Below are positions 14,024 through 64,000 of a stretch of 64,000 bases of DNA, one piece after another. The DNA lies in NCBI RefSeq assembly GCF_006345805.1, contig NC_043000.1:66464001-66528000 (forward strand), given 5' to 3'. Position 1 is the stretch's first letter, and each line of letters opens with the position of its first letter. This DNA is from Octopus sinensis. Lineage: Eukaryota. Made by a program: the position numbers and the translations under genes. Below the pieces are notes generated by a model, which was not told the DNA's origin, did no database searches, and worked only from the letters and a program-made list of their open reading frames with translations.

Positions 14024-14664
14024 TAATGATGAGCTAGCACATATATACAAACTAAGCTATCCACCTCAGTACTAGCTGAATTTGTGGCTGCTTTATATCA
14101 AAGATGAATGCTCTATGCTATTGATTAAGGAAGGAAGCCAAGTATGACTTCTCTGAGGAGCATTCAACAAACCTTGAAACAGTCAATCAAAAGACTATCT
14201 TTTTCTTCCACAGCTGCAACATAGAAAGAATGTCTTCACATATTTCATTTAAGGCACAGTTTTGAAATATTTAAATTTATTCCAATGCCTTGTGAGCAGA
14301 ATTTGCTAGATTGAAACTGTGCAGAAGGCTATCATATATGCATATATATATATATATATGTACAATATCTATTTTATGCACAACACAGCATAAATTAAAA
14401 GAACTGGAATAAATTTAAATATTTCAAAACCGTGCCTTCAGTGAAATATGTGAACATATTCTTTCTATGTTACAGATTGTGGAAGAAAAAGTTAGTTTTG
14501 ATCAACTGTTTCAAGGTTTGTTGAATGCTCCTCAGAGAAGTCATACTTGGCTTCCTTCCTTAATCAATAGCATAGAGCATTCATCTTTGATATAAAGCAG
14601 CCACAAATTCAGCTAGTACTGAGGTGGATAGCTTAGTTTGTATATATGTGCTAGCTCATCATTA
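14024..14664. repeat. ~260-bp inverted repeat (outer 160 bp identical, inner ~100 bp diverged); left arm splits a SINE (13943-14360)
   Basis: 14024-14284 is the reverse complement of 14405-14664. Confidence 0.95.
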
Positions 14665-27083: not shown

Positions 27084-27194
27084 CTGAAATAATAACAGAA
27101 ATTAAATAGAAAAAAAGAAAAACCAAAACAATAAAATTTAATCTAACTAATAGTCCTCTTTGACATTTATTCCACACATACGTTTTGAGAAACA

Positions 27195-27820
27195 TTGAAG
27201 AACAGTGGCTCCTTCAAGCTCAATTTTTTACTGAACTGTATAGTTACTGAAGAGAAAGAAGCCATTTTCAAAAGCTACACCAATGATACTAAGATATCAA
27301 AGGCATTAAAATGGTCTGAAGATATTAAAAGCCTACAGAAGAACTTCAGTCATCATTATATAACATCTGTTTTCCATACTGGCATGGTCTGACTGGAACT
27401 GGTAAGCTGGAGGGATGCACCAGGCTCCAGTAAAAGGTACTCATGCCTGTTACATGTAAAGGGCACCTGGTACATACTGTGAAGTGGTTAGTGTTAGGAA
27501 GGGCATTGAGCTGTAGAAAACAAGCCAACCTCAGTGCTGTTTAGATATGAATTGAATAAAATAGTATAAAATTCAATGCAGGGAAGTTTCAAGTCCTACA
27601 ATGTTGTACAAACAAGGATACAGGGAGAAAGGAAATTGTTATACTAGCGTCAGAATCTATATAGTATCTTGAAACTATAACGAATATAGTACCTTATTCC
27701 ACATGCAGAAAACTGACAGCATGGAACTTAAGGAAATTTAAACTGATCCAGTATTGGAACCTGTTTCAGGAATTTCAAGGTTTTGAAGAGTGTCAAACCA
27801 TCTCTTAGCCACTATTGCTC
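27195..27820 (+). mobile_element. Highly decayed CR1/L2-like RT fragment interrupted by RTE-tail pieces
   Basis: FKSYTNDTKISKA...DIKSLQ (YADDTK-like); aaattcaatgcagggaagtttcaa. Confidence 0.5.
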
Positions 27821-28929
27821 CCAATCCTATTTGTTTCCACTAAATAATCAGGACTTCTTGTCCTGATTATTTAGTGGAAGATATTTGTTCTTAATTATTT
27901 AACTTACATCTTAGGTTAAGGGCTTGCACAAAACTGTATTGGTTCCATGAATCAAATGAATTATTAGACATGATAAACAACTGAGATTATATTCACTGAT
28001 ATGAGGAGAGTGATATACAGTCAATCATGCCTAGAAAGTCCAGAAGAGACTGGTACTAAAATTTGGACAACACCAGTACAGTGCTCGCCAATGAAGCTCT
28101 CTATGAGTCACACTCTATCAATTCTTGAGTGCCCCAGGGCTTAGTTATGAGTCAAACACTCTTCTCTATACTGTTTTACTGTTTTTTTCCGCCATCCTTC
28201 TCTAATTCCCTTTTTTACCCCTCCCTTCTTCATCGTTTTCTATCTGTTTCTCTCTCTTCCCTATTTCTCTTTCTCTCTCTCTCTCTTGTTGCTCACATGT
28301 GACCATAGTCCATCTTTCTTTTCCTGTACAGACATTCAAAAGAGCAGACATTTTCTTTTCTCTCTTTTCTCTTTTCAAAAAAATATTTCTCACAGCATTC
28401 ACTATTTTCCTCTCGTTCTGGTCTAACGACCTTCCATGTTTGTTTTCGTTTGGTTTCCTTGTATGTTTCCACTGCCATGTTTTTATTCCCAAATTTGACC
28501 CTCCATAAATACTAAATTTTATTTTAGAATTTCTGGGAGCAACTGTCTTTGAAGACTCATACTGTCGCTGAATGATCAAAATGAGGAGTAGATAGACAGC
28601 TGATAACTGATGAATGGTCCTTTCGCTATGTTTACTTGTCCAGTTCTCCATTTTTTCTCCTTGTTTATGTATTTCATGCTTGAACCGTTGGTGATATCCT
28701 GTACCAATATATATATGGTTTTAAATTGATATTAAAATTAATATTAATTTATCTCCCTCATTATTTATATATATATATTCAAAAAGCAATAAAGATTCAA
28801 GTTAATTTAAATGAATTTACTTGAATATGGTACCTAACTTAGATGCACCAAAAAAAAACTATACTGTTTTAACAATACAGTAATGTGGGGTGATTATAAG
28901 CGAGAAAGAAGCAACAAGAATGGATAGGT

Positions 28930-29020
28930 TTTTAGTACAATCGTTTCATACAAGGACAGGCTTTATTAAAAGTTGCAAAAATTACAGCATATAAACGTGT
29001 CCCGTACTCATCAGCTAAAA
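28930..29020 (-). ncRNA. Identical hammerhead ribozyme, sense to NT5DC3 intron 1
   Basis: Mirror copy of 30234-30324 in the left arm. Confidence 0.8.
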
Positions 29021-30233
29021 TACATGTGAGTTCTCTAGACATCCTAGTGGTTGAGGCTATACTCATGAAGTAATGTAGATAATTAAGTAACATAAACAGA
29101 TTTCCAAAGTTCATTAAAGTTCTTTAAAGATGATGTACAGTCTTATCACAGAATTTTAAAAAAGTTTTAATAGCATCACAGAGAAGGCGACCTAATCCAT
29201 AGTGCACATATGAATTTCCAGAGATATGAGGAGGGATTACATACTCACAGACGACAAATTTATCCATTGTTAATCACAACGAGGTGGGTCTCAATTCCTG
29301 CTTATTAGCATTACAGAGAGGGTGAATTAATCCTTTGTATAGATGCACAATTTCCAATGGTGTAGATGTAAATTTCCAGAGAAATGAAGAGGAATTTCAT
29401 ATTCACAGGCGATAAATTTATCAATGGTTGAACACAATGAGGTAGGTATCAATTCTTGTTATATGATTAGGTATTTGCCACATTAATCACATTACTGCTA
29501 TTTACAATAGCTATTTAACTTTTAAAGGCTGAAGGGCTTTCTAGAGAGGCAAAGAACAGAAAAGGGAAGGGAAGAGAAGAAAAGAGAGAAAATAAAGGAG
29601 GAGGGAGGAAAAAAAGGGGGGGGGGACTAAAAGAGAGGAGAAAAGGAAAAAGAGAATAAGAAGAAGAAAAAGAAAAAAGAGAAAAGAGAAAGAAATAGGG
29701 AAAGAAGGGAAAAAGAAAAAGAAAAAAAGAGGGTTCTAGTTATACAGAAGAATTAGTAGTAATGTGATTAATGTGGCAAATACCTAATCATATAACAAGA
29801 ATTGATACCTACCTCATTGTGTTCAACCATTGATAAATTTATCGCCTGTGAATATGAAATTCCTCTTCATTTCTCTGGAAATTTACATCTACACCATTGG
29901 AAATTGTGCATCTATACAAAGGATTAATTCACCCTCTCTGTAATGCTAATAAGCAGGAATTGAGACCCACCTCGTTGTGATTAACAATGGATAAATTTGT
30001 CGTCTGTGAGTATGTAATCCCTCCTCATATCTCTGGAAATTCATATGTGCACTATGGATTAGGTCACCTTCTCTGTGATGCTATTAAAACTTTTTTAAAA
30101 TTCTGTGATAAGACTGTACATCATCTTTAAAGAACTTTAATGAACTTTGGAAATCTGTTTATGTTACTTAATTATCTACATTACTTCATGAGTATAGCCT
30201 CAACCACTAGGATGTCTAGAGAACTCACATGTA

Positions 30234-30324
30234 TTTTAGCTGATGAGTACGGGACACGTTTATATGCTGTAATTTTTGCAACTTTTAATAAAGCCTGTCC
30301 TTGTATGAAACGATTGTACTAAAA
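30234..30324 (+). ncRNA. Type-I hammerhead ribozyme with extended helix II
   Basis: TTTTAG-CTGATGA-[60-nt hairpin GTACGGGACA...TGTCCTTGTAT]-GAAAC-GATT-GTA^CTAAAA; 6-bp helix I. Confidence 0.8.
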
Positions 30325-30430
30325 ACCTATCCATTCTTGTTGCTTCTTTCTCGCTTATATATATATGACGGGCTTCTTTCAGTTTCTATCTAACAAATCC
30401 ACTCACAAGGCTTTTGTCGGCCTGAGTCTA

Positions 30431-32382
30431 TATCATCATCATCATCTTCATTTTTGTCGCTTTGATGTCCGTTTTCCATGCTGGCAGGGGCTGGCAACCC
30501 AGAAGGCTGCACCAGGCTCCAATCTGATCTGGCAAACTTCCAACAGCTGGATGCCCTTCCTAATACCAACCACTCCAAGAGTCTAGTGGTTGCTTTTTAT
30601 GTGCCACCGGCATGAGGGCCAGTCAGGCAGTACTGGCATTGACCACACTTGAATGGTGCTTTTTATGTGTCACCAGCATAGGAGCCAGTCAGGCGGTACT
30701 GGCAACGACCATGCTCGAATGGTACTTTTCACGTGTCACTGGCACGGGACCAGTCAGCTGGCACTGGCAACGACCATGCTCGAATGGTGCTTTTTATGTG
30801 CCAGCAGCACAGAACCAGTCAGATGGCAGTGGCATCGATCACACTCAAATGGTGTTTTTTACGTGCCAATCAGGCGGTACTGTCATTGGTCATGACAATG
30901 ACCTCACTTGAGTCAACAGGTCTTCGCAAGTGCAGTTTATTGCTCAATGATTGAAGGGTACTCTTAAATGGGCTGGTTATGCTGCACTGGCATAGGCCAT
31001 AATCACGGTCTCACTTGGCTTGCCAGGTCTTCTCAAGCACAGCATATCTCCAAAGGTCTCGATCACTTGTCATCACCTCTGTGAGGCTCAACGTTCGAAG
31101 GCCATCCTGGGTCTACCTTTTCCACAAGTTCCCTCTAATTTGTCATAGTTTGGCTGACCGAAAACTAGGGTGTGACACTTTTTCATACAGCTGTCCTCAT
31201 CCATATGCAACACATGACCATACCAGCGCAGTCGTCTCTCTTGCACACCACATCTGATGCTTCTCATGTCCAACTTTTCTCTCACTTACATTCTGTCGCA
31301 TATGCACACTGACATTACACATCCAGTGGAGCATACTAGCTTCCTTCCTTGCAAGCTTACACATGTCCTCAGCAGTCATGGCCCATATTTCACTGCCATG
31401 TAGCATGGCTGTTTGCACACATGCATCATACAGTCTACCTTTTACTCTGAGCGAGAGGCCCTTTGTCACTAGCAGAAGTAGGCTATTCTTATTCTTCCAG
31501 CTACACTCTCAGAACATCCACCCCTGCAACTGACTTGGTCACCTAAGTAATGGAAGCTATCAACTACTTTTAGTTTTTCCCCCTGGTATGTGATGGAAGC
31601 TGTTTTCTGCACATTTTCTGAGTTTATTGCTCCTGAGAATTTGCTACACACAAAAACTATCTTCCCAGTTAGCCTTCCTTTGATATTGCTGCACCTCTAA
31701 TGTGTTCATAGCTTACACTGGGTACATCTTATGGAATTTCTACCAATACCTATGGGAGTGACAAATGAAAATATCAATAGTGGAAAAGAAGAATACAGGC
31801 AGGGTTAGGTATGCTCTGGAAAGACATTTCTGTGTTAGACCGAAAAGAGAAGGGGGAGGTTAAAAGCAAACACAAATACAGAGCACTGAACAAGAAAAAT
31901 GATATTCAGTGCGACAATGAGATAGAGAATAGTAAACCAGACATAGTGTTGAGAAAGAATGCAAGCCATGCTGGATCCTAAATATAGCAAGCCCAGCTGA
32001 CAAGAAGGTATGCGATAAGGGAGAAAGAAAAGTCGATAGATATGACAGGTTAGCTTGAGAGGTTAAGCAGTTGTGGACAATGAAAAAGGTGGTAGTACTA
32101 GTAATTGTCGGAGCCTGGGGAATAGTGAGTAAAAATCTTGAGAAGTACATGGAACAAATAGGGGCTCTAATAAGAATGGAGCAATTGCATAAAACAGCAC
32201 TGCTTGGAACCACTCAAATACTCCGGAAGGTACTCAAAAAGTAAGGGGTGCTATCTTAGTTCACTTTGGTTTTTGCTAGACTGACTCTAAGGCCCTTTGT
32301 TTCTAGACCTTGCTTCCATACCTGAAACTTCACCTCTAGTTCTGATAGTGACTCAGCTATTAGAGAAAGGTCATCAACATAG
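30431..32382 (-). mobile_element. Decayed RTE LINE (3' half) with ~60-bp 3'UTR tandem repeats, interrupted by an R4-like fragment
   Basis: RRLRWYGHVLHM, GLSLRVKGRLY, VDSFHYLGD; (CAT)n tail at 30431-30446; RT resumes at 32263-32382. Confidence 0.9.
31860..32250 (+). mobile_element. R4/Dong-like RLE 3' fragment nested in the RTE
   Basis: WTMKKVVVLVIVGAWG..SKNLEKYMEQIG..QLHKTALLGTTQILRKVL. Confidence 0.75.
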
Positions 32383-32876
32383 GCTGCCGGTGTTAGAAAA
32401 TATTAATGATAATAATGAGATAGAAGTGGGCATTTGAATTCTTAACTAGAGCTATAACCAACAGTTTTCGGTCAGCCAAACTATGACAAAATTAGATAAA
32501 TGAATGAATAAATGGCAATAAATAAATGAGTGTGAAAGAGAGGGAGAAAGAGGGAGAGTTGGATTGAGCGAAGGGATCTTAAGTTTTTTTCTCTAAACAT
32601 ATGGCATGGAAGACAAAACTGTTTACATAGGTAGATAGTGAAATGAAATAATAAAGTAATTATAATCTGCACTGAAAAAGAGGTTTTAGATGTGTGCTTG
32701 GTTGGAAAACAAGGTTGCTTATCTGAACATCTTCTGGTTTCTACTCCATGTGGTGAGGTATTAAAATGTGAGGTAGGGGAATATGAATGAGCTAGTTTAT
32801 ATAGGGTGGGGTGGGGTGGGGTGGGAAGAGTGGAGGTAAAGTGTTGGGAGAAGCAAGTTGTTAATGAAACTGAGAG

Positions 32877-32926
<50 letters not shown>

Positions 32927-33128
32927 AGAATTAAGCTGGTTGAAGACAGAACATGAGGAGACGGAATTTGGGGATTTAGGATAACATAATTGAACGAATG
33001 GTTTTAACATTGCCGCTGCTGGAGTGAAAGAATAGTAATTCTGACAATGAGATAGAATGGGGCACTGGGAAATAGCAAGAACTCAGGTTGCCGGTGTGAG
33101 AAAATATTAATGATAATAATGAGATATA
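32381..33128 (-). repeat. Unclassified dispersed repeat bounded by ~43-bp direct repeats, with (GA)n; related copy at ~59040-59260 (+)
   Basis: gccggtgt.agaaaatattaatgataataatgagata at 32386 and 33090; ttggctgaccgaaaact shared with the copy near 59185. Confidence 0.55.
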
Positions 33129-33566
33129 ATGATCAAGCAAGTCCAGCCTTCCTTACTTACAGAGTGTCCATTTCTTTTATTGTATTTAAATACATTTAAT
33201 TCAAAATAAGGAAGTGCCAAAGGGAAATACCAGATAAATGAATGTGTGTGTGGGCGTGTACAAAAACATACACACATGCATTTTTCTGCAATCTTACTTT
33301 TCCATTGCTTTCATATTTAGAGCATTAATCCATTGCAAAGTGGACTGCATATCAGACACACCTTTGTTTAAGGCATCCTGAGCCTTGCTATAGTAGAAGG
33401 CAATTGTCTAAGGTGCCATGCAGTGGGACTGAACCCAGAACCAAGTGGTTGGGAAGCAAGCTTCTTCCCACACAGCCACTCCTGTGCCTATATATATATA
33501 TACGTCCAACCCATGCTAGCATGGAAAACGGACGCTAAACGATGATGATGATGATATGTATGTATG

Positions 33567-33654
<88 letters not shown>

Positions 33655-34037
33655 TATATACTATATATATATGTATATAAAATGAGATAGGGGTTGAAAA
33701 TTCAACCCACCATGGGATATATATATCCAATATACTGCTAGATAGGTACCCACACAAAATTATACATAGATGTTAAAAATTGTCAAACAATCAGTTCATC
33801 TATTGCATTATATGGGTAAAGGTAATAATATTACCGTAAATTAATACTACAAAATTAGAGAATGGAGAATATACTTAAATCAGTAAAACATCAACTATCC
33901 GATGATACTCAATCCATACTTTAATACACCATTACATATGAGTAAAGGCAATACATAAAATGAAATGAGATATACAGTAATTAAAAAGATAAGATATATA
34001 AGTAAAAAATTTTCAAATATAATATGCAAATAAATCA

Positions 34038-34152
34038 AAACTGACAGCTGTTTCGGCAGTGAGGACAGTCATACCTCATTTAACCTATAAGCCATAAAGG
34101 CAGGTATAAATGAGGCATTAACAAGGATGCCCCACGGCCTCTTCAGAGAATT
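34038..34152 (-). ncRNA. Hammerhead ribozyme core with 85-nt helix II hairpin
   Basis: CT-CTGAAGA-GGC...GCC-GAAAC-AGCT-GTC^AG; internal 12-bp ATGCCTCATTTA/TAAATGAGGTAT; helix I weak (2 bp). Confidence 0.7.
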
Positions 34153-34507
34153 AAATTAAATTTGTTATAATAGTGAAAAATATTATACAATCATATACAT
34201 ATAAATATAAAAATATAAAAATGTAAAATATAAAAACTTATACATCATAATGCTACACTTATATAATATAATACACATTTGTACAAAAAAGGAAGGTAAA
34301 CAGAACAAAATAAAACAAAATATATAATAGTGTATATATTAATATCAATAAGTACCGATATTATACATATTTGGCTAATAGTTTTTTTTATATATAAAAA
34401 AAAAAAGGCTAACATATATGGAGATGAAAAATAATAATTAAATCCGTGGTACAGTTCATAAGATTCTAAAGCTATAAAAGTTAATAAAAGTTAATAAAAA
34501 TTACTAT

Positions 34508-34539
<32 letters not shown>

Positions 34540-36247
34540 TATAATAAAAAATAGATACAGTTAAGTTAGCACCAAGTCCATCCTTACAAGATCGAAATAA
34601 CTATGAGTTAAGAAATGCTGACCACTAGGTAAAGAAAATATAGATTAATTCGATTGGCTATTGGTTTGAAATTTAAATCACAAAAGAAAAAAATATACGG
34701 TTGGTTAGTCAGGGAACGCCAATATTCACACACGCATCTACAGATCAATCGCACATACACACATAGTTATATGTATATACATACACTTATACACATACAT
34801 AATCACAAGCAACAACTAGCACATAGATAAACAAAAAGGGAAGCAACTATGCTACAATTTAGTCCTTCAAAATTATAACTGTGCCTCAATAACAAAAGAA
34901 GAACCATCCATGCATTCCATAAAATATTTAATTTAGATATAAATATATTTTTAAATATCAGTATGTTACTAAGTCAGATACTTATTTCATGGGTAACTTA
35001 AAATTTATAACACCGGTTTGTTGCAGAGTAAACATACGGTTGTTAGATTTATCGTAAGTTTGTTATGGTTTTAAGTACGCTAAATTATAAAATATAAAAT
35101 ATAAAATATATATTAATTTAAATCTTATAAATAAGTCACTTATTAACTTAATAAATATAGTGCCATAATATACCAGTTTAGGCATTAAAGAATAGAAGGG
35201 GAAGTATTAATGTAAACGCTTATGAGAACATCACAGAAATTTTAAATAAATTTTATATTATAAAGACTTAAGATGAAAAGAGATAAAATAAATAAGAAGG
35301 AATAAATACGAAGGAATAAATACGGTTATACACATAATTATAAGTACAAACCAGTATATATGTATTCATATATTATTAAAATTAAATAAAAATAAATGAT
35401 AGATATGTATGTATAAAACTACCCCAGTATAAGTAAATAAGTAAAAAATAAATAGGTAGCAAATTAGATGACTTGATATGTATGTAAACATCTACACTTA
35501 AATAGGCAAATAAATAAATAAATAGAAGACTAGATGCAAAAATTGATAATATTACAATAAATGGAAAATAAATAAAAATAATAAATAGAGTGAATATATA
35601 TGTTATATTGTTGAAAGTAAATATGTATGGAGGATAGTTTAAAGTACAGATCCAGAGGACTATAGATATAAACTAAATATATGAGGCTGGTAATAATTAT
35701 AAAGCAAAATGCATGTAAATGAAAATGAAAAAATGAAAAAGGTTTATCAGTGAATAGCATAAGATACAAATTAAGTGAGTACAAAAAGACCAAATATACA
35801 ATAAAAACCTTCCAAATAACACATACAAAAACCTATAATCTCAACCTAAACCCACCAAACTCACAAAAAGCTCTCATATATTACATATTATACAATATCA
35901 TTACATTATCCAGAGCTAGGTATCTACCCAGATATATATATATACTATGCAATATACTATGCAATATTGGAAAACTTCAAAAATCACACATTACAAGGCA
36001 AGTACCAAATGAATATGTTATTTTATGTCATATTGCAATCTCTTAAAAAAACAAACAAAAACCCACATACAAAAAACAAGAAACCAATAATACTAGACAC
36101 ATCCATTAATTATTATACAAATGTAGCTATAAAAATTATAAAATTATAAAATATATAAATTGTATACTTTAGAAATTATAGAAGACCACAGGTATATTTA
36201 GTTAAAGAAGGGAGTTAAAAAATTGATAATAGTGGAAGTGCTAAGTT

Positions 36248-36574
36248 CTATTTGAATCTAGAAAAGGTGAACGGTAGCCTATGAATACAAAAGAAGTTTT
36301 TTTCATTAATGTTGTTAATGATTTGCCGACCCGCTTTAATAATGAAGAAAATTTCATTAATACATAGAGAGCATTTTTTATTTTTTCCATTATACACAGG
36401 TGCTGAAGTTAGTATTTTCCAGTTTAATCTAAAATCTAAGTTCTTATTTTTAAGTTCCCAAATGTATGCACTTAGCCCTGTAGAGTACATTCTATTTTTA
36501 TTCCTAAAAGTATATCTGTGATAATTCCATCTTTGTTTTATGCTATTCATAGTTGCCCCGATATACACCCTTGG
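36248..36574 (-). CDS. Penelope-type GIY-YIG endonuclease domain, uninterrupted from YIG to stop
   Basis: PRVYIGATMNSIKQRWNYH...TGLSAYIWELK...WKIL...CSLCINE...IINNINE...CIH; R, H, E and N positions retained. Confidence 0.8.
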   Translation of the reverse strand, partial: PRVYIGATMNSIKQRWNYHRYTFRNKNRMYSTGLSAYIWELKNKNLDFRLNWKILTSAPVYNGKNKKCSLCINEIFFIIKAGRQIINNINEKNFFCIHRLPFTFSRFK

Positions 36575-37719
36575 CTACAATGGTTAAAGGTTAAAAGCTC
36601 AAATGATTTTGATAGTGGCTTGGTTGAGGTCCTTGTATTTATGTGTATGATTGTATGTATATATATTTTTATTTTGTGGGGAATTGTATAAATACACACA
36701 CGTGTACTTGTGTATGTGTGTGAGTGTATAGTGGGAGAGAGAAAGATGGGGAAGGTGAGATAAAATTTCTTGTCTCTTGTTCAAAAGAGGAAATCTCTTT
36801 GCAATGGCACCCATTCAGGTTCTGGACAAGCACAAACACACATCCATACACACACACACACACACAAGGGGCTGTAGTAGTAGACATTTGGTGCCACACA
36901 CCGCTGCTAAATCCAGAAACATATAGCTAAGGAACAAAGTTCCTGCCACACAGACAGGACTGTGTCTTACAACAGCTTATAGAAAAAAAAAAAAAAAAAA
37001 ATCGGTAAGTATATAACCAGCTTCCAAAAAATTCTAATCTAACAATTATTATTTATTTGCATTTTATGCATATCCCTTTTAGCATAAAATGCAACAAATA
37101 AAGTTTCTTTGGGATTTTGTAAAATTTCTTTCCAATTTTTACCAGAATATTTTTAAAAGGCGTAGTTTAGATGTTTAAATTTATAGTTTAACAACACCCA
37201 CCTTGATTTCGGTGAGAAATGTTTTTCCCTTGTTTTCCTTTTTTCTTGTGCTATCAACTAATTTCATCTCCTAATATACCGCAAAGACCTTTTTTCATCA
37301 AAAACAGAGTGGAGTGAGCCCTTGGAATCCTCCTCTCACTTCAGAGTTATATTTCTTCCTTGTTTTTTTTTTTTTTACGTGTGCTGTCAGCTAATTTCAG
37401 CACCTAGTATACTGCAAAGGACCTTTTTCCCCTTTGCAGCATATTAGGAGATCAGAATAGTGGCTACTTTTTATGCCTAATAACTGCTGTTTCTAACATA
37501 CTATACAACCACATTAAGGACCAGCTACCTTGGAGTTTATTTAAAAGAGAGGGAAAAATGCTTTACACAATAAATTCCGATATAATCATAATCTACACCA
37601 TCAGAGACATATATATATATGTAGAAAATTTTATTAACAAATTATCAATAATTCAGAAAGTTCCACATACATATATATACATATATACATACACATATAA
37701 ATATGTACATAATATATCA

Positions 37720-39648
37720 TCATCATCATCATCATCATCATCATCGTTTAACGTCCGTTTTCCGCGCTAGCACGGGTTGGACGGTTCGACCGGGGTCTGG
37801 GAAGCCAGGGGCCGCTCCAGGCTCCAGTCTGATCTGGCAGAGTTTCTACGGCTGGATGCCCTTCCTAACGCCAACCACTCCGCGAGTGGAGTGGGTGCTT
37901 TTTATGTGCCACCTGCACAGGGGCCGGGGGGGGGGGTCCGGCATCGGTCACGATCGGTTCGAGCTTTTAACATGCCAGCGGCACAGGAGCCAGCCAAGGC
38001 GGTGCTGGCAACGTTCGGATGGTCTTACCGGCACAGAGGCCAGTCGGGGCAGCGCTGGCATCGGCCACGTTCGGATAGTACTTTTTATGTGCCACCGGCA
38101 CAGGCATCATAACTCCTATTTCCATTGATATTTATTTCGACGTTCATGTTCATGTACTTGACTCAACAGGTCTCCTCAGGCACAGCAGGACGATCTGGGA
38201 TCCGGGGTACTTTGAATGGGCAGGGGCTATGTGGAACTGATGCAGGAAGTAGCCCGGGTCTTTTCAGTCACAGCATATCTCCAGAGATCTCGGTCCTTCG
38301 CCATTGCCTCAGTGAGGCCCAATGCTCTGAGGTCATGCTTCACTACCTCATCCCATGTCTTCCTGGGTCTACCTCTCCCCCTGATACCTTCAACTGTTTG
38401 GGAGTGGCACTTCTTCACACATCTCTCTTCATCCATCCGCAGCACATGACCATACCATCGCAAGCGTTGCTCTTGCACACCACATCTGATGCTTCTTATA
38501 TCCAGCATTTCTCTCAGGATGCTTACACTCTGTCGTGCGTGCACACTGACACTACACATCCAGCGGATCATGCTAGCTTCATTTCTTTCAAGTCTACGCA
38601 TGTCCTCTGCAGTCACAGCCCATGTTGCATTACCGAGAAGCATGGCAGTTCGCACACATGCATCATACAATCTACCTTTCGCTCTGAGGGAGAGACCCTT
38701 TGTCGCCAGTAGGGGTAGGAGCTTTCTGAACTTTGCCCAGGCTATTCGTATTCTAGTGGTGATACTCTCTGTGCATCCACCTCCGCTACTAACTTGGTCA
38801 CCCAGGTAGCGGAAACTATCAACTACTTCTAGTTTCTCTCCCTGGAGTGTGATGGAATCTGTTTTCTGAGTGTCTGTTGTGTCTATTGCCCCTGTGCATC
38901 TGCCGCACATGAAAGCTATCTTATCTGTTAATTTCCCTTTAATGTTGCTGCACCTCTTATGCGTCCATAGCTTACATTGGGTGCATCTTATGGAGTTTCT
39001 ACCAGTACCTTTCCTACAGATTGAGCAGGGCCACCTACCCGAGGGGGTGTGTGCTGAGTACGCCTTGCTGCTTACTATTACTTTGGTTTTTGCTACATTT
39101 ACTCTAAGGCCCTTTGATTCTAACCCTTGCTTCCACACCCGAAATTTCTTTTCTAGTTCCGGTAGTGATTCTGCTATGAGAGCTAGGTCATCAGCATAGA
39201 GGAGCTCCCAGGGGCATCCCGTTTTGAATTCCTCTGTTATTGCCTGGAGGACTATGATGAATAAAAGGGGACTGAGGGCTGAGCCCTGGTGCACACCTAC
39301 TTCTACCTGGAATTCTTCACTATATTCGTTGCCAATCCTAACCTTGCTGACAGCCTCTCTGTATAGAGCCTGTACAGCCCTTATTAGCCATTCGTCAATC
39401 TCCAGTTTCCACATCGACCACCAGATAAGGGAACGGGGAACCCTGTCAAAGGCTTTCTCCAAGTCCACAAAAGCTATGTAGAGGGTTTATCTTTAGCTAG
39501 GTACTTCTCCTGCAGTTGTCAGACCAGGAATATAGCATCAGTGGTGCTTCTACCTGGTACAAAACCGAACTGCATTTCATCTAAGCAAATTCTCTCCCTA
39601 ATGAGATGGGTTATGACCCTCTCTGAGACCTTCATCACCTGGTCCAAC
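37720..39648 (-). mobile_element. Relatively young 5'-truncated RTE LINE
   Basis: 413-aa open RT ORF (38227-39468): DLEKAFDRV, GVHQGSALSP, LLYADD, FRYLG, RLRWYGHV; GC/CpG-rich 3'UTR; (TGA)n tail. Confidence 0.95.
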
Positions 39649-41069
39649 ATGCATATCATCATCATCATTTAACGTCCATTTTCCATGCTAGCATGGGTTG
39701 GACGGTTTGACAGGGGCCTTGGCATGGTTTTTGTGGCTGGATGCTCTTCCTTCCATCACCACTTTACAGCATGGACTGATGGCTTTTACATGGTATCGCA
39801 CAGTAGCATAGTTTCAATGGCTGAATACCCTTCCTAACACCACCAATTTACTGCATGGAATGGATATTTTTACATGACACCAACACGGTGGCATATATAT
39901 ATATATATATATATATGTATATGTATTATATGTATATATATATGCGCATACATACACATCATATATGCACGCACATATATACATACACACACATATATAC
40001 GCACACACATTATACTCTGTTTGAAATAAACTGAAAGGCAGCCCGTCCTTAACGTGGCTGTTTAGTATACTAGAAATAGCCGTTATTAAACATACAAAAC
40101 AGCCACTATTCTGATCACCTAATAAGCAGCAAAGGGGAAAAAAGTTCTCTGTAGGAGGCGAGATTAGTTGATACGCCTGAAAACAAAACGAGGAAAAGAA
40201 AATAACTCTGAGGTGGGTGGGAGGGAATTTCCGAGGTGCAAGTTGACTGGCAACCTGGGGCCCACTAAAGTTGTGCCCTGTTGTCCATGTGTATCTGCGT
40301 GCATGGGGGCAGGGGGGTGCGCAAGAAAAACATTTATGGAAATGTACGCATAAAATTTCTATTAACATAAGTTATCTTTATGCCATGTGTTTGCAATTCT
40401 CCATATAAGTGATAGCAAAGTATGTATCAAACGAAATTAAAATCCTGGTTCAATGACAGATCGATCAAGTTACTAAAGTTCTAACAGTTGATAGCAACAC
40501 ATTCTCTCTTTTAATTGAATATTGAAAAAGAGAGAAAATGTAAGGGAAATAAATTTTGGCGATAAGGACTAAACCCCTTGTTGCATTATCACAATTAAAA
40601 AGAAATTCAGATGTATAACATTGTGCAAGTTCATTTCCGTAAATGATTTTCTGCTAACCCCCCCCCCCCCACACACACACTTACACACGTGGATACACTT
40701 CGATGAAGTCCCATTTTGGAAGTATGTTAAGATTTTTATTATTTTGGAATAAAGAACACAAATAGGTGCTGAACCAGTGACTAAACTTAAAGTATTTTGT
40801 TGGGATTATTCCAATGAATTGACACCAAGGTAATTGATTCTATCAGAATCGTTTACCTTTAAAGCAAAAAATAAATAAATAAATAAAATAAAATTAATAC
40901 GTATATGACAAGTCTGTTCATTCAGATAAACTGCAGAAATTGTTGCACGCACGCACACACAAACATAAAATTTCTCCAGACAGCTGTTATTTTTAGCATA
41001 TCGAGTTTTGTGGTGAGGGCTTTACATGCCGTGATCCTTTTGCTGTTACACCATAAATGCAGAAACGGA

Positions 41070-41760
41070 CAAAACAGCCGTTCATTTTCACTTTTTGACA
41101 GTGGGATGAGGTGGCGAGGTGGGGGGAGCGATCAATTTTGGAGTTTTCCTTAAAAATTTTGAAATTAAAATGCCTCCCACCCCCACCCCCATTTTCTTAC
41201 TCTGTATTTTTCCACGTAGACTGAAAAAAATTTCGAAAAAGGTTAAAAATGAAAAATTTGGGGGTAGAATTAAAAATTTTGAAAACATGTTTTTTTTGCA
41301 TATTAGGAATCTCCATCATTGAAAACATAGGAATCCGGTGAAAAAAACAAAACATTTTGGTGACCGGGTGCTAAACTACATCCTGAAAGTTATGAGAGGA
41401 GAAAAACGGATCGTATAAATTTTCGGACAATCCTCCCCCCAACCCCTCGGAAAAAATTTCCCCAGAAATGTCTTTATAATCGTATTTTGTGCCATTTGAA
41501 GAGGATTTCTTTAAAATTTCAGCAATATATATCCATTTTCCTGAAAGTTATGAGGAAAAAATTGGATCTTGTGAATTTTCCGAAAGTCCTCTCCCCATCA
41601 CCCCACGTTCGTTTGCGCATTTTTTTTTTTTTTTTGCATATTCGTTTTCTACACAGTTTTTAACACCTAGAATGCTGCTATTTTTTTGTTTTTTTCGTCA
41701 ACGGGTCTCAAACTTTATATTGACCAAATTATGACCTGTCTTAAACGTTGGCGGTTCTAA
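41070..41760. repeat. Unclassified CpG-bearing repeat resembling the interior of a non-autonomous DNA transposon
   Basis: Recurrent cctgaaagttatgag and aattttcgga/aattttccga motifs, C/G runs; no termini identified. Confidence 0.35.
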
Positions 41761-43630
41761 ATAATAGATAGCGCAGAGGTAATTCACAGGTAATTCCACC
41801 CTGTCTTCGTAGCATTTGGGGAAAAGGTACGTTCTGCTATATAAGATCAGAAAATTTGTAGGAACATGAGATATCTTCAAGTTGCAAGTTAGTACCTTTT
41901 ATTTGTAGACAGTAAATACAGGTCTTTTGCTCTACAGTTACAATTATAATCAACTTTCTTCAGTGAAAAAGTTATAAAAAGTTACATTAATATGTGTGTG
42001 TACGGGGTGAGGGGAATGTGTGTGATAAGCACGACAGAACAAGAGGTAAGCTCCCAACTAGTTGAGACGGTGATCACGTTCAATCCTGGTTGAAGACATT
42101 TCACGTCCTTACGCGTCTAATGCTCTTGGGAAAAGTCACAATGTCCACTAGAATATGAATCAAAAAGAAAATTTGAGCATTAAAATTAATGCATCAAGCT
42201 AATGAGAAATCATTATACGGTTGCACGATCTGTTAGAAACAACAGTCCAGTCTCCCTTAAATCACACCATACAGACATGAGAAAAGAAAGAATTACTAGG
42301 TACAATGTCATCCTGGGACAGACACGGCTTAAACGTTATTTGAAGAGCCACAACATCATACGACACCTCACTACATTATACCTTTAACAACGGAGTCTAT
42401 GCTTTCACACCCCGGCTGTCTGAAAACATGGAAGGCAGGCAAAATACATCAACCAAAACAGTCCTAGATAACAGATGAGATTATTACAGTTGGAATGCCT
42501 TTTGATTACAAGTTTGCACAATAAGAGTTAACCTGGTGCTCTCTAAACCACCACACATGCAATCAACAAAAGATCACAGGTCTGTGGATTGTTACTATAT
42601 TTTGCTCGACCCACACTGACCTAGGATTAAGCATATCAACTGGAAAGAATAAATGGCTAATCCAAACACCATAAACATTACAAGTTAATAGATTGATGGG
42701 AGGGGGGGATCGTAATTCATCGAAAATGAAAACCTGGAAAGTTAACAGAGTGAAATATATTTGAGAAAAGTGAATCCCAGTTGTATTAAAATGAAAAAGC
42801 CTTTTTGATAGAAATGCTAGTTTTCGTTATTTTATTATAATGTGTACTAAGCAGGCACAAGTTGGTACGCAGAATCTGCGCTCACAGTTTCAATTCCAAG
42901 TGAAAGTATTTCATTCACTTGACATCCAAACACATATTTCTTTTCCTTTACAGTACCAATTTTCAAGCCTCTATGAAGAGCAATAAATTTCTTCATACTA
43001 ATTAGTCGAATGTTTCAGTAAAATAGAACATAAACAGTAACTATTATTCTTAATTGAACATAGGCAAGTATATTTTAAAGTGTTGCTCAGTGACGCCACA
43101 TCACTTGATGAATGTTAAAATACAATGCTCCAACAAATCGAGTAGAATATAAATATTATAAACCGAAATGAATTCGGAAATCAATGAAAATATTTTAAAG
43201 GATAAAATTCCTACAAAAGGATGATCGAAGACATAGTAAAAAGGGTTTATAAATGTCCTTGGTATTAAAAGTGACCTTTCAATATGACAGCAGGGAATCT
43301 AACGAAGAGTTTGTATCATACTTATCTTCATATTTATTTCTAAGTAGGGTGCTACATTAAACATCACACTTGACAATAATATCAATACTAATCGGTAACT
43401 GAATTTAAAAACAATTAAGCGACTGTGCCACAAACTATACAGTAATGACTTTCATAAAAAAAACAGCAGTTTAAGCAAATCAGATTGTTTACTATCAGGG
43501 GTTTGTAGAAGGGAAGGTTATATTTTCTTTGTTATTCCTTACGTCATTTCAGTCTCTGAAAAACGAAATAAAACGGTTATCTTCGCATTAATATAGTCTG
43601 AAGGATTGTGAAAAATATTTGTAAACATAC

Positions 43631-59499: not shown

Positions 59500-60040
59500 G
59501 GTACATGACACTGCTGTCCCCCATCCCAAGGTCTCACGGGCCCACATCTCCTACATCCTCAGAGTTGGCACACTCAATGTGGGAACACTAAAAGGTAGGC
59601 CTGGTGAGATTGTTGAGATACTTGAATGGAGACATGTAGATTTGTGCAGCATCCAAGAAGTAAGGTGGAGAGGAGGTTCTGCTAGGTTCCTCACAGGCAA
59701 AGAACATAGGTACAAGATTTTCTGGGCAGGGAACACTGACAGGGTCTGGGTCGTGGGTATACTTCTTGTGGAGAAATGGGTTGATAAGGCAATCGAGGTA
59801 GTCAGAGTCTGTGATAGAATACTTAAGATAAGGTTAGTGCTGCAACATGGGTTAGCAGCCATTATCTTGGCCTATGCTCCTCAGCTGGGGCTACCTGATG
59901 GACAGAAACACTGATTTTATGATGCCCTCTTGCTGACTACCTCATTGATGAATGACAGGGACCTTCTTTTTGTGGCTGGTGACTTCAGTGGACATGTTGG
60001 ACAATATGCAGGGGGCTTCCATGGCAAACATGGAGGCTAT
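59500..60040 (+). mobile_element. RTE APE-endonuclease 5' fragment
   Basis: LRVGTLNVGTL..IQEVRWRG..AYAPQ..VAGDFSGHVG. Confidence 0.9.
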
Positions 60041-60480
60041 GGGCATATGGCATAGTGGTTAAGAGCACACACTACTAACCCCAAGATTCTGAGTTTGACT
60101 CCAGGCAGTGACCTGAACAATAATGATGATGATGACGACATCAAAAAATACCTTAGGAATGAGAACCCAGGTTCAAAATTTCTACAAGATACCTGATGAA
60201 AGCTGGAAGGTATATCAGCCGAAACGTTGTATTAACAACAAGGAAGACGAGGAGAAATATCCGTCAATTGTAAATAATGTACATAATTCCTCATCTCTCA
60301 AATACAGAACCATGATATATAGTTCTATATAGTTCTATATTTAAGAGAATGAGGAATTATATACATTATTTATACTATTTACATTCGACAGACTATGCCA
60401 TATGCCCATGGACATATGGCGTAGTGGCTACTAACCCCAAGATTCCAAGTTTGATTCCAAACAGTAACCTAAACAATAAC

Positions 60481-60511
<31 letters not shown>

Positions 60512-60652
60512 TCGAAAAATACCTTAGGAACAAGAACCTAGGTTCAAAATTTCCCCAAGACACCTGATGAAGGCTAGAAGGTATATCAGCCAAAACGTGT
60601 TAACAACAAACAAGATGAGTACAAATATCTGTCGAATGTAAAATAATGTACA
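60041..60652 (+). mobile_element. tRNA-headed SINE with Penelope-like HHR tail: copy 1 (60041-60310), inverted deleted copy (60332-60407), copy 2 (60410-60652)
   Basis: A-box TGGCATAGTGG, B-box GAGTTTGACTCC, (AAT)n linker, CTGATGA..GAAACGTT core. Confidence 0.75.
60188..60233 (+). ncRNA. Minimal Penelope-type hammerhead-like motif
   Basis: GATAC-CTGATGA-A-AGCTG..CAGCC-GAAACGTT-GTATT; helix I GATAC/GTATT. Confidence 0.6.
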
Positions 60653-60681
60653 TGATATATATATATATATATATATATATC

Positions 60682-61261: not shown

Positions 61262-64000
61262 TCATCATCATCATTTAACATCCGCTTTCGATGCTAACAT
61301 GGGTTGGACGATTTGACTGAGGACTGGCGAACCAGGCTCCAATCTGGCAGAGTTTCTACAGCTGGATGCCCTTCCTAACGCCAACCATTCAGAGAGTGTA
61401 GTGGATGCTTTTACGTGCCACAGAAACGAGGACCAGTCAAGTGGTATTGGCAACGGCCACACCCAAATAGTCTTTTTTTTTTATGTGCTACCTGCACGCT
61501 GGCACAAGTACCAGTAAGGCGATGCTGGTAACGATCACGCTCGAATGGCGCTTTTTACGTGTCACTAGCACAGATGCCAGTTAGCTGCTCTGATGGTGCT
61601 CTTAGTGCTCCACTAGCATGGATGCCTGTCATCAAATTTGATTTCGATTTCACTTGCCTCAACAGGTATTTGCAAGCAGCGTCCAATGAAGGGAAGGTAC
61701 TAATAAGTGGGCTGGTTACACCCCTGGCATAGGCCACAAGGTTATGGTCTCATTTGGCTTGCTGGGTCTTCTCAAGCACAGCATATTTCCAAAAGTCTCG
61801 GTCGCTAGTCATTGCATCAGTGAGGCTTAATGTTCGAAGTTTGTGCGTCACCACTTCATCCCAGGTCTTCCTGGGTCTACCTCTTCCATAGATTCCCTCA
61901 ACCACTAGGGTGTGGTACATTTTCATACAGCTATCCTCATCCATTCTCAACACATGACCATACCAGTGTAGTCGTCTCTCTTTCACACTACATCTGATGC
62001 TTCTTAGGTCCAACTTTTCTCTCAAGGTATTTACAGTCTATCGAGTAAGCACACTGACATTACACATCCATCGGATCATACTGGCTTCATTTCTTGCAAG
62101 CTTATGCATGTCCTCAGCAGTCATGGCCCATGTTTCACTGCCATGGAGCATGACTGTTCATACACATGCATCATACAGTCTACCTTTTACTCTGAGTGAG
62201 AGACCCTTTGTCACCAGCAGAGGTAAGAGCTCTCTAAACTTTGCCCAGGCTATTCTTATTCTAGCAGCTACACTTTCAGCGCACCCTCCCCCACTACTGA
62301 CTTGGTTGCCTAGGTAACAGAAGCTATTAACTACTTCTAGTTTTTCTCCCTGGAAGGTGGCAGAAGTTGTTCTCTACATATTTTCAGTGTTTATTGCTCC
62401 TGAGAATCTGCCACATACAAAAACTATCTTCCCAGTTAGCCTTCCTTTGATATTGCTGCACCTCTTATGTGTCCATAGCTTACACTGGGTACATGTTATA
62501 GAGTTTCTACCTACACTTTTTCTACAGATTGAGCAGGGCCATCTACCTGACGGGATTTATGGTTTTCCTGCCTTCCTACTTATTAGGACTTTGGTTTTAG
62601 CTAGGTTGACTCTAAGGCTCCTCGATTCTAAACCCTCCTTCCACACCTGGAACTTCTCCTCCAGTTCTGATAGTGACTCAGCAATTAGAACAAGGTCGTC
62701 AGCATAGAGGAGCTCCCAGGGGCAACCTGTCTTGAATTCCTCCGTAATTGCCTGGAGGACTATGATAAATAGGAGGGGGCTAAGTACTGAACCCTGGTGG
62801 ACCCCAACCTCTACTTTGAATTCTTCTGTGTACATGTTGCCAACCCTAACCTTACTTACGGCATCCCTGTACATGGCTTGCACAGCCCTCACCAGCCATT
62901 CATCTATCCCTAGTTTCCTCATTGACCACCAGATAAGGGATCTGGGGACCCTGTCAGAGGCTTTCTCTATATCAACAAAAGCCAGGTACAGAGGTCTATC
63001 TTTGGCCAGGTATTTCTCCTGCAGCTGTCTTACCAGAAATATAGCATCAGCGGAGCTTTTCCCTGGCACGAACCCAAACTGCATCTCATCTAAACTGACT
63101 CTCTCCCTAATTATTTGGGCTATGACTCTCTCCGTGAAACTTCATTACCTGATCTAACAACTTGATACCTCTGTAATTATTTGTATCTAAAACGTCACCT
63201 TTTCCTTTGTAGCAGTTGACTACAGTGCTGCTACACCAGTCATTGGGTATGACTCCTTCGTGTATCACCTGGTTAACTATACGGGTGACTAGACTATAGC
63301 CAACACTGTCAGATATTTTGAGCATCTCTGCAGTGATTCCTGATGGGCCGGGGGCTTTCCCTGTCTTCATACTCTTAATTGCTTTATCTACCAAGGTACT
63401 GTCAACTCGGACAGCAGGTCCCTCTGATGGGTCGACATTTGGCAGACTCTCTTTCTCCCATTCATTTACTTTATTTGGTAACCTTTCATAGTGGCGTCTC
63501 CAAACCTCTCTCTTTGCAGCCTCGTCTAGTGCAAGTGAACCATCATCCATGCAAACACATTTCTCTCCTACAACATCACAATTCTCTCTCACACACTGTC
63601 TTGCAAAACAAAATACCTCAAGTCTTTGGTCCTCATGGCACAGAACAATGGCAAATTTTTTCTTATCTGCTTCCTCTCTGGGTAAATAAACCTGCCTCCT
63701 AGCTTCCCTTCCGGCAGTCTCATACAATTCCCTGCTACCACCATTCTTCCAGTCCTTCCAAGCCTGTTTCTTTTCTCTAATAGCCCTGTCAACAACATTG
63801 TTCCACCACCATGTTATTTTGGGTCGAGAGGGGACTTTGCACCATCCACAGATCTGGTCAGTTGTCCCTAGCAGATTGTTCTGTAGAAACCTCCAGTTGT
63901 CTTCTACATTGTGTGAAGCTATATCCCCTGCTATTTCGTCAAAGACTTCAAGTAATACGTCTCTAAATCTCTGTCCATTGGCAGGATCTTTAAGCTTCCA
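61262..64000 (-). mobile_element. RTE LINE (frameshifted), extending beyond window end
   Basis: KAPGPSGITAEM, NYRGIKLL, QFGF, GVHQGSVLSP, LLYADD, RLHWYGHV; (TGA)n tail. Confidence 0.95.

Follow-up and report, generated by a model that had tools for sequence, protein, structure and literature searches.

The stretch of DNA considered here, referred to as the window, covers 64 kb of the octopus genome and includes, on its minus strand, the exons of a 5'-nucleotidase gene (PF05761). The likely first exon of this host gene lies at 43820-43631 and its second exon starts at 27084. Since these minus-strand exons flank it, a hammerhead motif at 34146-34043 of the same strand is sense to intron 1, which is where the initial annotation had placed it. 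What that annotation did not contain is the C-terminal GIY-YIG endonuclease found on the same strand as the ribozyme and 2.1 kb upstream of it. The features are as follows.

27085..43630, minus strand: intron 1 of the host PF05761 5'-nucleotidase (NT5DC-like) gene, with exon 1 placed by its ATG, GT donor and matching phase
36248..36574, minus strand: 5'-truncated C-terminal GIY-YIG endonuclease of a Hydra-clade Penelope-like element (PLE), 108 open codons
34147..36247, minus strand: putative 2.1-kb T-rich 3' UTR, from endonuclease to ribozyme (composition)
34147..34154, minus strand: predicted 5' strand of helix I (2 bp, 2x2 U-U loop, 4 bp)
34140..34146, minus strand: hammerhead core C3-A9, CUGAAGA (sequence, descriptor scan)
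34055..34139, minus strand: helix II insert, exactly 85 nt, 33 predicted bp (fold)
34052..34054, minus strand: core G12-A13-A14, GAA (sequence, descriptor scan)
34044..34051, minus strand: palindromic helix III, ACAGCUGU, predicted to form an 8-bp intermolecular helix in the dimer
34043, minus strand: C17 (sequence)
34042..34043, minus strand: predicted cleavage site after GUC, 34043/34042 (sequence and established hammerhead numbering)
34035..34042, minus strand: predicted 3' strand of helix I
33680..34042, minus strand: 363-nt tail reaching the putative 3' end, where short hairpins lie near 33712-33686
33554..33679, no strand: (TA)n microsatellite, the likely insertion target (repeat scan)

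The motif is a hammerhead, real and beyond chance. The type I core set is complete, with CUGANGA, GAA, the A15.1-U16.1 pair and an NUH site following each other in type I order, and the segment at 34140..34146 is the sole exact CUGANGA on the minus strand within 33680-36700. The sequence and a descriptor scan thus bear out the intact core that the initial annotation had described, as they do the perfect palindrome of helix III (34051-34044), and its predicted cut position agrees with the site given above. The structured 85-nt helix II that it proposed is likewise recovered by folding as a single hairpin of 33 pairs (-38.0 kcal/mol, z -5.52), with none of 200 shuffles folding as well. The opposite strand reaches -27.7 kcal/mol, so that the ribozyme strand is better by 10 kcal/mol, and all three wobble pairs are G-U on the ribozyme strand. 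In the predicted fold the base of helix II consists of 3 bp, in which the G10.1-C11.1 closing pair is kept (pair probability 0.98), and a C-U mismatch; above this lie an 8-bp inner stem, a 5-nt bulge and an apical extension of about 22 bp, capped by a terminal loop of 5 nt. The bulged nucleotide between A9 and 10.1 is absent, the G next to A9 being paired.

Could a hairpin and a few core-like words have met here by coincidence? A relaxed descriptor by itself yields 60 hits in 100 block-shuffled windows (0.6 per window), and generic long-helix patterns gave 29 hits in viral contigs, all of which look like chance and none like a ribozyme. However, a helix II that folds at -30 kcal/mol or lower is seen in just one of the 60 shuffle hits and an 8-nt perfect palindrome in none, while among the 29 viral hits no insert is below -23 kcal/mol and no helix I exceeds 2 bp. 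Taken with the subtype match and the endonuclease context described below, this leaves chance co-occurrence a negligible prospect. On a length-independent Hydra-core score the motif attains 27.6 bits and ranks first in the window, where the best of 60 shuffled windows gives 27.1 bits and the training median is 30.4 bits. Candidates at 41963 and 61106 were discarded for a non-canonical helix III or an unfolded insert.

Standard searches do not find the motif. No hammerhead family is among the 18 Rfam matches at E<=5 in 28000-38000, so that both this motif and a second ribozyme at 30240 are missed. Covariance models built on Hydra ribozymes detect the one at 30240, at 27.7 and 34.8 bits, yet do not report the motif at E<=5 or E<=3, the likely cause being length, as their longest hit is 95 nt and the motif with its flanks is 120 nt. 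The published core search, with its 7-17-nt spacer, misses it as well. Covariation in the other Hydra ribozymes arises partly by construction, and the helix II extension lies outside it. There is therefore a blind spot in detection, shared by Rfam, by models trained on short relatives and by the 7-17-nt-spacer search, such that the number of PLEs called ribozyme-lacking may be an overcount.

The identity of the element comes from the endonuclease. Its profile match runs over 36670-36239 with an E value of 1e-40, and relatives number 3157 at E<=0.001; word-based protein searches returned nothing and Pfam gave no family. CxxC and CxH motifs surround the conserved E and N and no CCHH is present, the combination by which the Hydra clade is defined (PMC8557442). 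Hydra-clade RTs are marked by RWK and DKT motifs and a CxCx5C linker (PMC8557442); the CxCx5C linker occurs in the closest homologue (P0002, 65% over 63 aa), and RWR, DKT and YRDD in a long one (P0122). The assignment of the ribozyme to a Penelope-type, dimer-style hammerhead, made in the initial annotation, can thus be narrowed to the Hydra clade. Upstream of the endonuclease the frame has in-frame stops, and as no RT of this element was found within the 64-kb window the copy is 5'-truncated.

For comparison, 109 loci with a Hydra endonuclease were used, comprising 80 out of 503 that were confirmed in metagenomes searched in part, 1 viral locus and 28 from genome contigs. At 68 of the 109 the endonuclease is followed downstream, on its own strand, by a strict type I hammerhead, for which at least 3 helix I pairs were demanded, giving 57 distinct ribozymes; the 41 loci with no strict hit stand outside the length counts, 20 of them having less than 300 nt of flank and several others showing imperfect ribozymes whose inserts do not go beyond about 30 nt. 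In the 57 distinct ribozymes helix II measures 10-29 nt and helix I has a median of 5 bp, and the hairpin of the motif has about three times the length of any among the relatives compared. Across 393 kb of Hydra loci neither strand holds a well-folded helix II of at least 32 nt, the lone candidate folding at -5.7 kcal/mol. The missing A9/10.1 bulge is shared by 19 of the 57, so the bulge is not universal.

Beneath the added length lies a recognisable subtype. An ACAG-type helix III occurs in 18 of the 57 distinct Hydra ribozymes, in one case (L068) identical to that of the motif. With a 4-nt offset, the inner stem of the motif agrees at 14 of 18 positions with the entire helix II of another relative of this subtype (L047), a level attained by 17 of 5000 pair-shuffled nulls, and at this offset its mean identity is 7.7/12 to ACAG-type ribozymes versus 4.1/12 to the others. 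From the match of both helix III and the inner stem, the motif is probably an ordinary Hydra ACAG-subtype ribozyme that has been lengthened at the base and tip of helix II. Such a stem would have grown by 4 nt to either side of its base (3 bp and the mismatch) and by some 60 nt at its tip. Nearer relatives did not come to light: a family-specific DNA pattern gave 0 matches in viral contigs, and a search for close-relative loci confirmed 0 of 323 candidates in metagenomes and 0 in viral contigs.

The remainder of the element can be followed by composition as far as its putative 3' end. The minus strand is 45-49% T in sub-ranges measured from the stop codon and the tail past the ribozyme is 46% T, and nowhere else in the window is there a long low-GC, strand-skewed run like 33501-36250. 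This run leads to the (TA)n at 33554-33679, and Hydra elements insert into (TA)n (PMC8557442). Tails from ribozyme to (TA)n at 28 Hydra loci are 30-738 nt long, with a median of about 51. At the 3' end itself (33686-33735, minus strand) short palindromes and an 11-bp hairpin are seen, a candidate counterpart, by analogy, of the stem-loop at which RT starts in an Anolis PLE. Words sampled from 33700-36600 are shared at a level of 40-67% by 20 of the 24 sequencing runs listed (8 studies, 3 organism labels), some of which hold only 45-199 million letters. Word sharing even in very small runs fits a multi-copy repeat that would cover all or part of 33700-36600. None of the runs listed with words of this range is an RNA run.

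One oddity of the element is its spacer. Hydra PLEs tend to be shorter than 3 kb, with a canonical hammerhead close behind the ORF (PMC8557442). The present element departs from this tendency, its ribozyme lying about 2090 nt behind the endonuclease, compared with at most 876 nt (median 110) at the 68 Hydra loci, and in full it would be about 4.6 kb. In octopus Naiad consensus elements the 3' UTR, judged by eye, is AT-rich and about 1 kb long (PMC8557442). The unusual length of the spacer invites the thought that two things have been read as one, namely that the ribozyme is the end of a separate PLE fragment (about 34750-33680), non-autonomous or of another source, which came to lie beside an unrelated Hydra endonuclease remnant. 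Near 34750-34800 there is indeed a microsatellite-like stretch that could be the junction of two elements, and the word share plateaus at 0.40-0.45 in many runs, so that maybe only part of the range is repeated. Yet base composition is equal on both sides of that stretch and no tandem units like those of retrozymes are present. The division would also leave the endonuclease piece without a ribozyme, unlike most Hydra loci with enough flank, and the ribozyme is itself of Hydra type. Such a split origin is accordingly unlikely, if still to be reckoned with. Most likely the motif belongs, as its 3' ribozyme, to a new family of the Hydra clade that has an unusually long helix II and 3' UTR.

Whether this ribozyme can cleave depends on helix I, for which the initial annotation allowed about 2 bp. 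Two contiguous pairs are indeed what is found, but the helix can be extended through a 2x2 U-U loop to four further pairs. At -1.0 kcal/mol it is weaker than 55 of the 57 Hydra helices I, a stable helix I being expected to have about 4-6 bp. The cleavable monomer fold makes up 1.4e-4 of the ensemble. In a dimer the cleavable fold is predicted at -93.7 kcal/mol, compared with -95.3 for the best dimer and -88.2 for two monomers, and is thus 1.6 kcal/mol above the former and 5.5 below the latter. In the free dimer helix III is predicted to form in trans, the inner six pairs having probabilities of 0.99-1.0, while the first helix I pairs reach 0.11-0.13 and the core bases are mispaired at about 0.73; these models, for monomer and dimer alike, omit tertiary stabilisation. 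Folding therefore predicts that a monomer of the motif is inactive and that a dimer is marginal. No 3' splice site, a feature of the D. virilis kind, is present in the 80 nt before the core, and no 7-nt alternative partner for helix I in the 1.8 kb upstream.

Behaviour of this sort has precedent. PLE hammerheads with a palindromic helix III show little or no cleavage as monomers and weak cleavage as dimers (PMC4209133); for instance, the S. mansoni motif shows no monomer cleavage and low dimer cleavage (PMC4209133). One PLE hammerhead requires the element's protein (PMC11167929). A feeble helix I may also mean that this particular copy is dead: the two U-U mismatches would be damage acquired after insertion, in a family whose consensus has a complete helix I of 5-6 bp. 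The rank of helix I below 55 of the 57 would agree with decay, as would the truncation and the in-frame stops that precede the endonuclease. On the other side, two ACAG-subtype relatives (L048 and L070) have a helix I that is equally weak, D. virilis Penelope has one of 2 bp (PMC4209133), and core, palindrome and 108 codons are all undamaged here. Post-insertion decay is a serious possibility, though we lean against it, and as to origin it is compatible with the best explanation. That explanation, which we consider probable, is that the intact type I core with its 85-nt helix II is the 3'-end ribozyme of a 5'-truncated Hydra-clade PLE (about 36600 to 33680, minus strand), with weak cleavage confined to the dimer.

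In this scheme two copies in a tandem element transcript would base-pair by way of the palindromic helix III and would then cut one another at GUC, trimming multimeric RNA for retrotransposition. Cleavage could be aided by the element's protein, as in an Anolis PLE. The likeliest job of the long helix II would be structural, as a stable stem that holds the two halves of the core together in AU-rich RNA. A lone intronic copy would leave the host pre-mRNA uncut.

The window holds further ribozymes. The one at 30240 (placed at 30234 in the initial annotation) is Hydra-like, with a 60-nt insert and a 6-bp helix I. A near-perfect inverted repeat of 609 nt (28895-29503 and 29751-30359) has a ribozyme in each arm, at 30240-30318 on the plus strand and 29014-28936 on the minus strand; the arms end about 41 nt past the ribozyme, with the 3' ends outward and a short (TA)n at the right one. 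In host pre-mRNA the 609-bp duplex would hide the sense ribozyme. A third family is represented at 60185/60555 by a minimal hammerhead of PLE type whose helix II has 21 nt, the second copy having a damaged core. It sits in a short repeat (60030-60660, plus strand) made of two tandem copies, about 370 nt apart and 82% identical, which ends at (TA)n. The head of this repeat looks tRNA-like by eye, ARAGORN finding no tRNA, and the repeat is possibly a PLE-mobilised SINE or a retrozyme.

The sense orientation of the motif to intron 1, together with another sense-strand ribozyme 5 kb downstream, might suggest that an intronic ribozyme has been domesticated to regulate the host 5'-nucleotidase transcript. 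Against this, the active fraction of the monomer is about 1e-4, the helix I strands of the two ribozymes are incompatible in sequence, and the second ribozyme is within the 609-nt inverted repeat that would pair it away. The retrotransposon context accounts for the site, and we regard a host function as very improbable.

How, then, do the motif and the 30240 ribozyme relate to each other? They had been described as unrelated in sequence and as sharing the same architecture, and both statements need adjustment. Direct alignment is at chance level, and homology of the 85-nt and 60-nt inserts was rejected (272 of 2000 shuffles align as well, and a common 7-mer occurs in 26% of shuffles), but both cores are of Hydra type and so the two are not unrelated in kind. 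Both inserts are long, and these two families, within 6 kb of each other, exceed the helix II of the 57 distinct and 26 tabulated Hydra ribozymes. A shared architecture is nevertheless overstated because the strongly folded apical hairpin belongs to the 34146-34043 motif alone, the 60-nt insert at 30240 having no significant structure (z -1.27, 24 of 200 shuffles as good).

These comparisons bear on whether the hairpin has been selected for a second function, such as binding of the RT-endonuclease or service as a Dicer/Drosha substrate, with long helix II a recurring class in the lineage. Its strong fold and 10 kcal/mol strand preference, the G-U orientation of all three wobbles, the long insert of another family 4 kb away and the protein-assisted ribozyme of an Anolis PLE (PMC11167929) could all be read in this way. 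However, the orientation of three wobbles would arise one time in eight by chance, helix II has no Rfam match, its terminal loop is just 5 nt with a 5-nt bulge besides, and the insert of the 30240 family is not significantly structured. Nor is long helix II general in this genome or in octopus PLEs, as the annotation had suggested it might be, since it is short in Hydra-1_Obim and in the third family here. The RNA region needed by the Anolis PLE is the first 172 nt of its ORF (PMC11167929), and in this sole PLE tested in vitro the protein-binding region and the RT start are downstream of the ribozyme (PMC11167929). A selected second function for the hairpin is decidedly unlikely. Marginally less so, but still improbable, is the broader proposal that the Hydra lineage here has repeatedly made loop 2 a long conserved hairpin, one that docks the RT-endonuclease or feeds a small-RNA pathway. 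If true, this would amount to a protein-switched class of long-stem ribozymes that is invisible to Rfam and published descriptors and is maybe abundant in cephalopod genomes.

Among known systems the closest are the type I hammerheads of Hydra-clade PLEs (Craig et al. 2021, PMC8557442), with Hydra-1_aMil, Penelope-1_NV, Penelope-1_SK and Penelope-2_SK as similar cases. In the Hydra rows of File S2 of that paper (n=26) helix II is at most about 26 nt, versus 85 nt here, and the 2.1-kb putative 3' UTR also sets the element apart from the Hydra-clade PLEs it describes. The published Hydra-1_Obim, compared by eye, has a different endonuclease and a different ribozyme (PMC8557442), and four short motifs of the element have 0 matches in the available supplement of PMC8557442, where line breaks could hide one. 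The minimal, dimeric PLE hammerheads of Cervera and de la Pena (2014, PMC4209133) likewise combine a palindromic helix III, a short helix I, an enlarged helix II and G10.1-C11.1, but their large helix II has 6-8 bp versus 33 bp here, and the bulged base at A9/10.1 is absent from the present motif. A precedent for length is found in the Selaginella PLE-X1 hammerheads, with a stem II region of about 53 nt (9 bp and a 35-nt loop; File S2, PMC8557442) that is marked there as non-canonical. These differ in being from a plant, in an endonuclease-less element, in being shorter, and in being listed as a loop and not as a 33-bp hairpin (PMC8557442). The PAc ribozyme of Anolis Poseidon (Frangieh et al. 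2024, PMC11167929) also comes from a PLE, has weak activity by itself and depends on the element's protein to cleave; it belongs to another clade and is a minimal ribozyme overlapping the ORF start, and insertion of PAc in vitro did not need cleavage (PMC11167929). Non-LTR retrozymes (PMC7229834; bioRxiv 10.64898/2026.07.22.740005) are alike in their type I hammerhead, dimer mechanism and PLE origin, but the retrozyme feature of short tandem repeats, each with a ribozyme, was not found at the motif.

PLE hammerheads have no settled role as yet (PMC8557442; PMC11167929), and a 33-bp helix II on a recognisable Hydra stem offers a natural deletion test for any task of the stem beyond holding the core. 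A description of such a motif was not found in the literature covered, a scope that excludes most subscription papers and the Repbase and Dfam libraries.

Several minor observations were made along the way. At the 3' ends of Naiad_Obim and Naiad_Ovul, as given in File S5 of PMC8557442, the segment labelled 'HHR_half_core' seems by eye to hold all the hammerhead blocks in the order S-G-C, with a helix III of about 5 bp, a 6-bp helix I, a 2-bp helix II and a short I-II linker. This order resembles that of the type-SGC ribozymes of PMC10085705, and if the reading is right cephalopod Naiads do carry a ribozyme; a report of a Naiad S-G-C ribozyme was apparently not found in the literature covered. 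Among the genome contigs (L082-L109) are several bacterial MAG or symbiont assemblies with Hydra-clade PLEs, one of them with 16 loci, which are likely to be animal host DNA. Elsewhere in the window is a further inverted repeat (14024-14192 and 14496-14664; 169 nt, 99%, spacer 303 nt), and several copies of an RT-bearing LINE with its 65-nt tandem repeat lie at 30591-30868, 31197-31749, 38227-39486 and 61750-63141.
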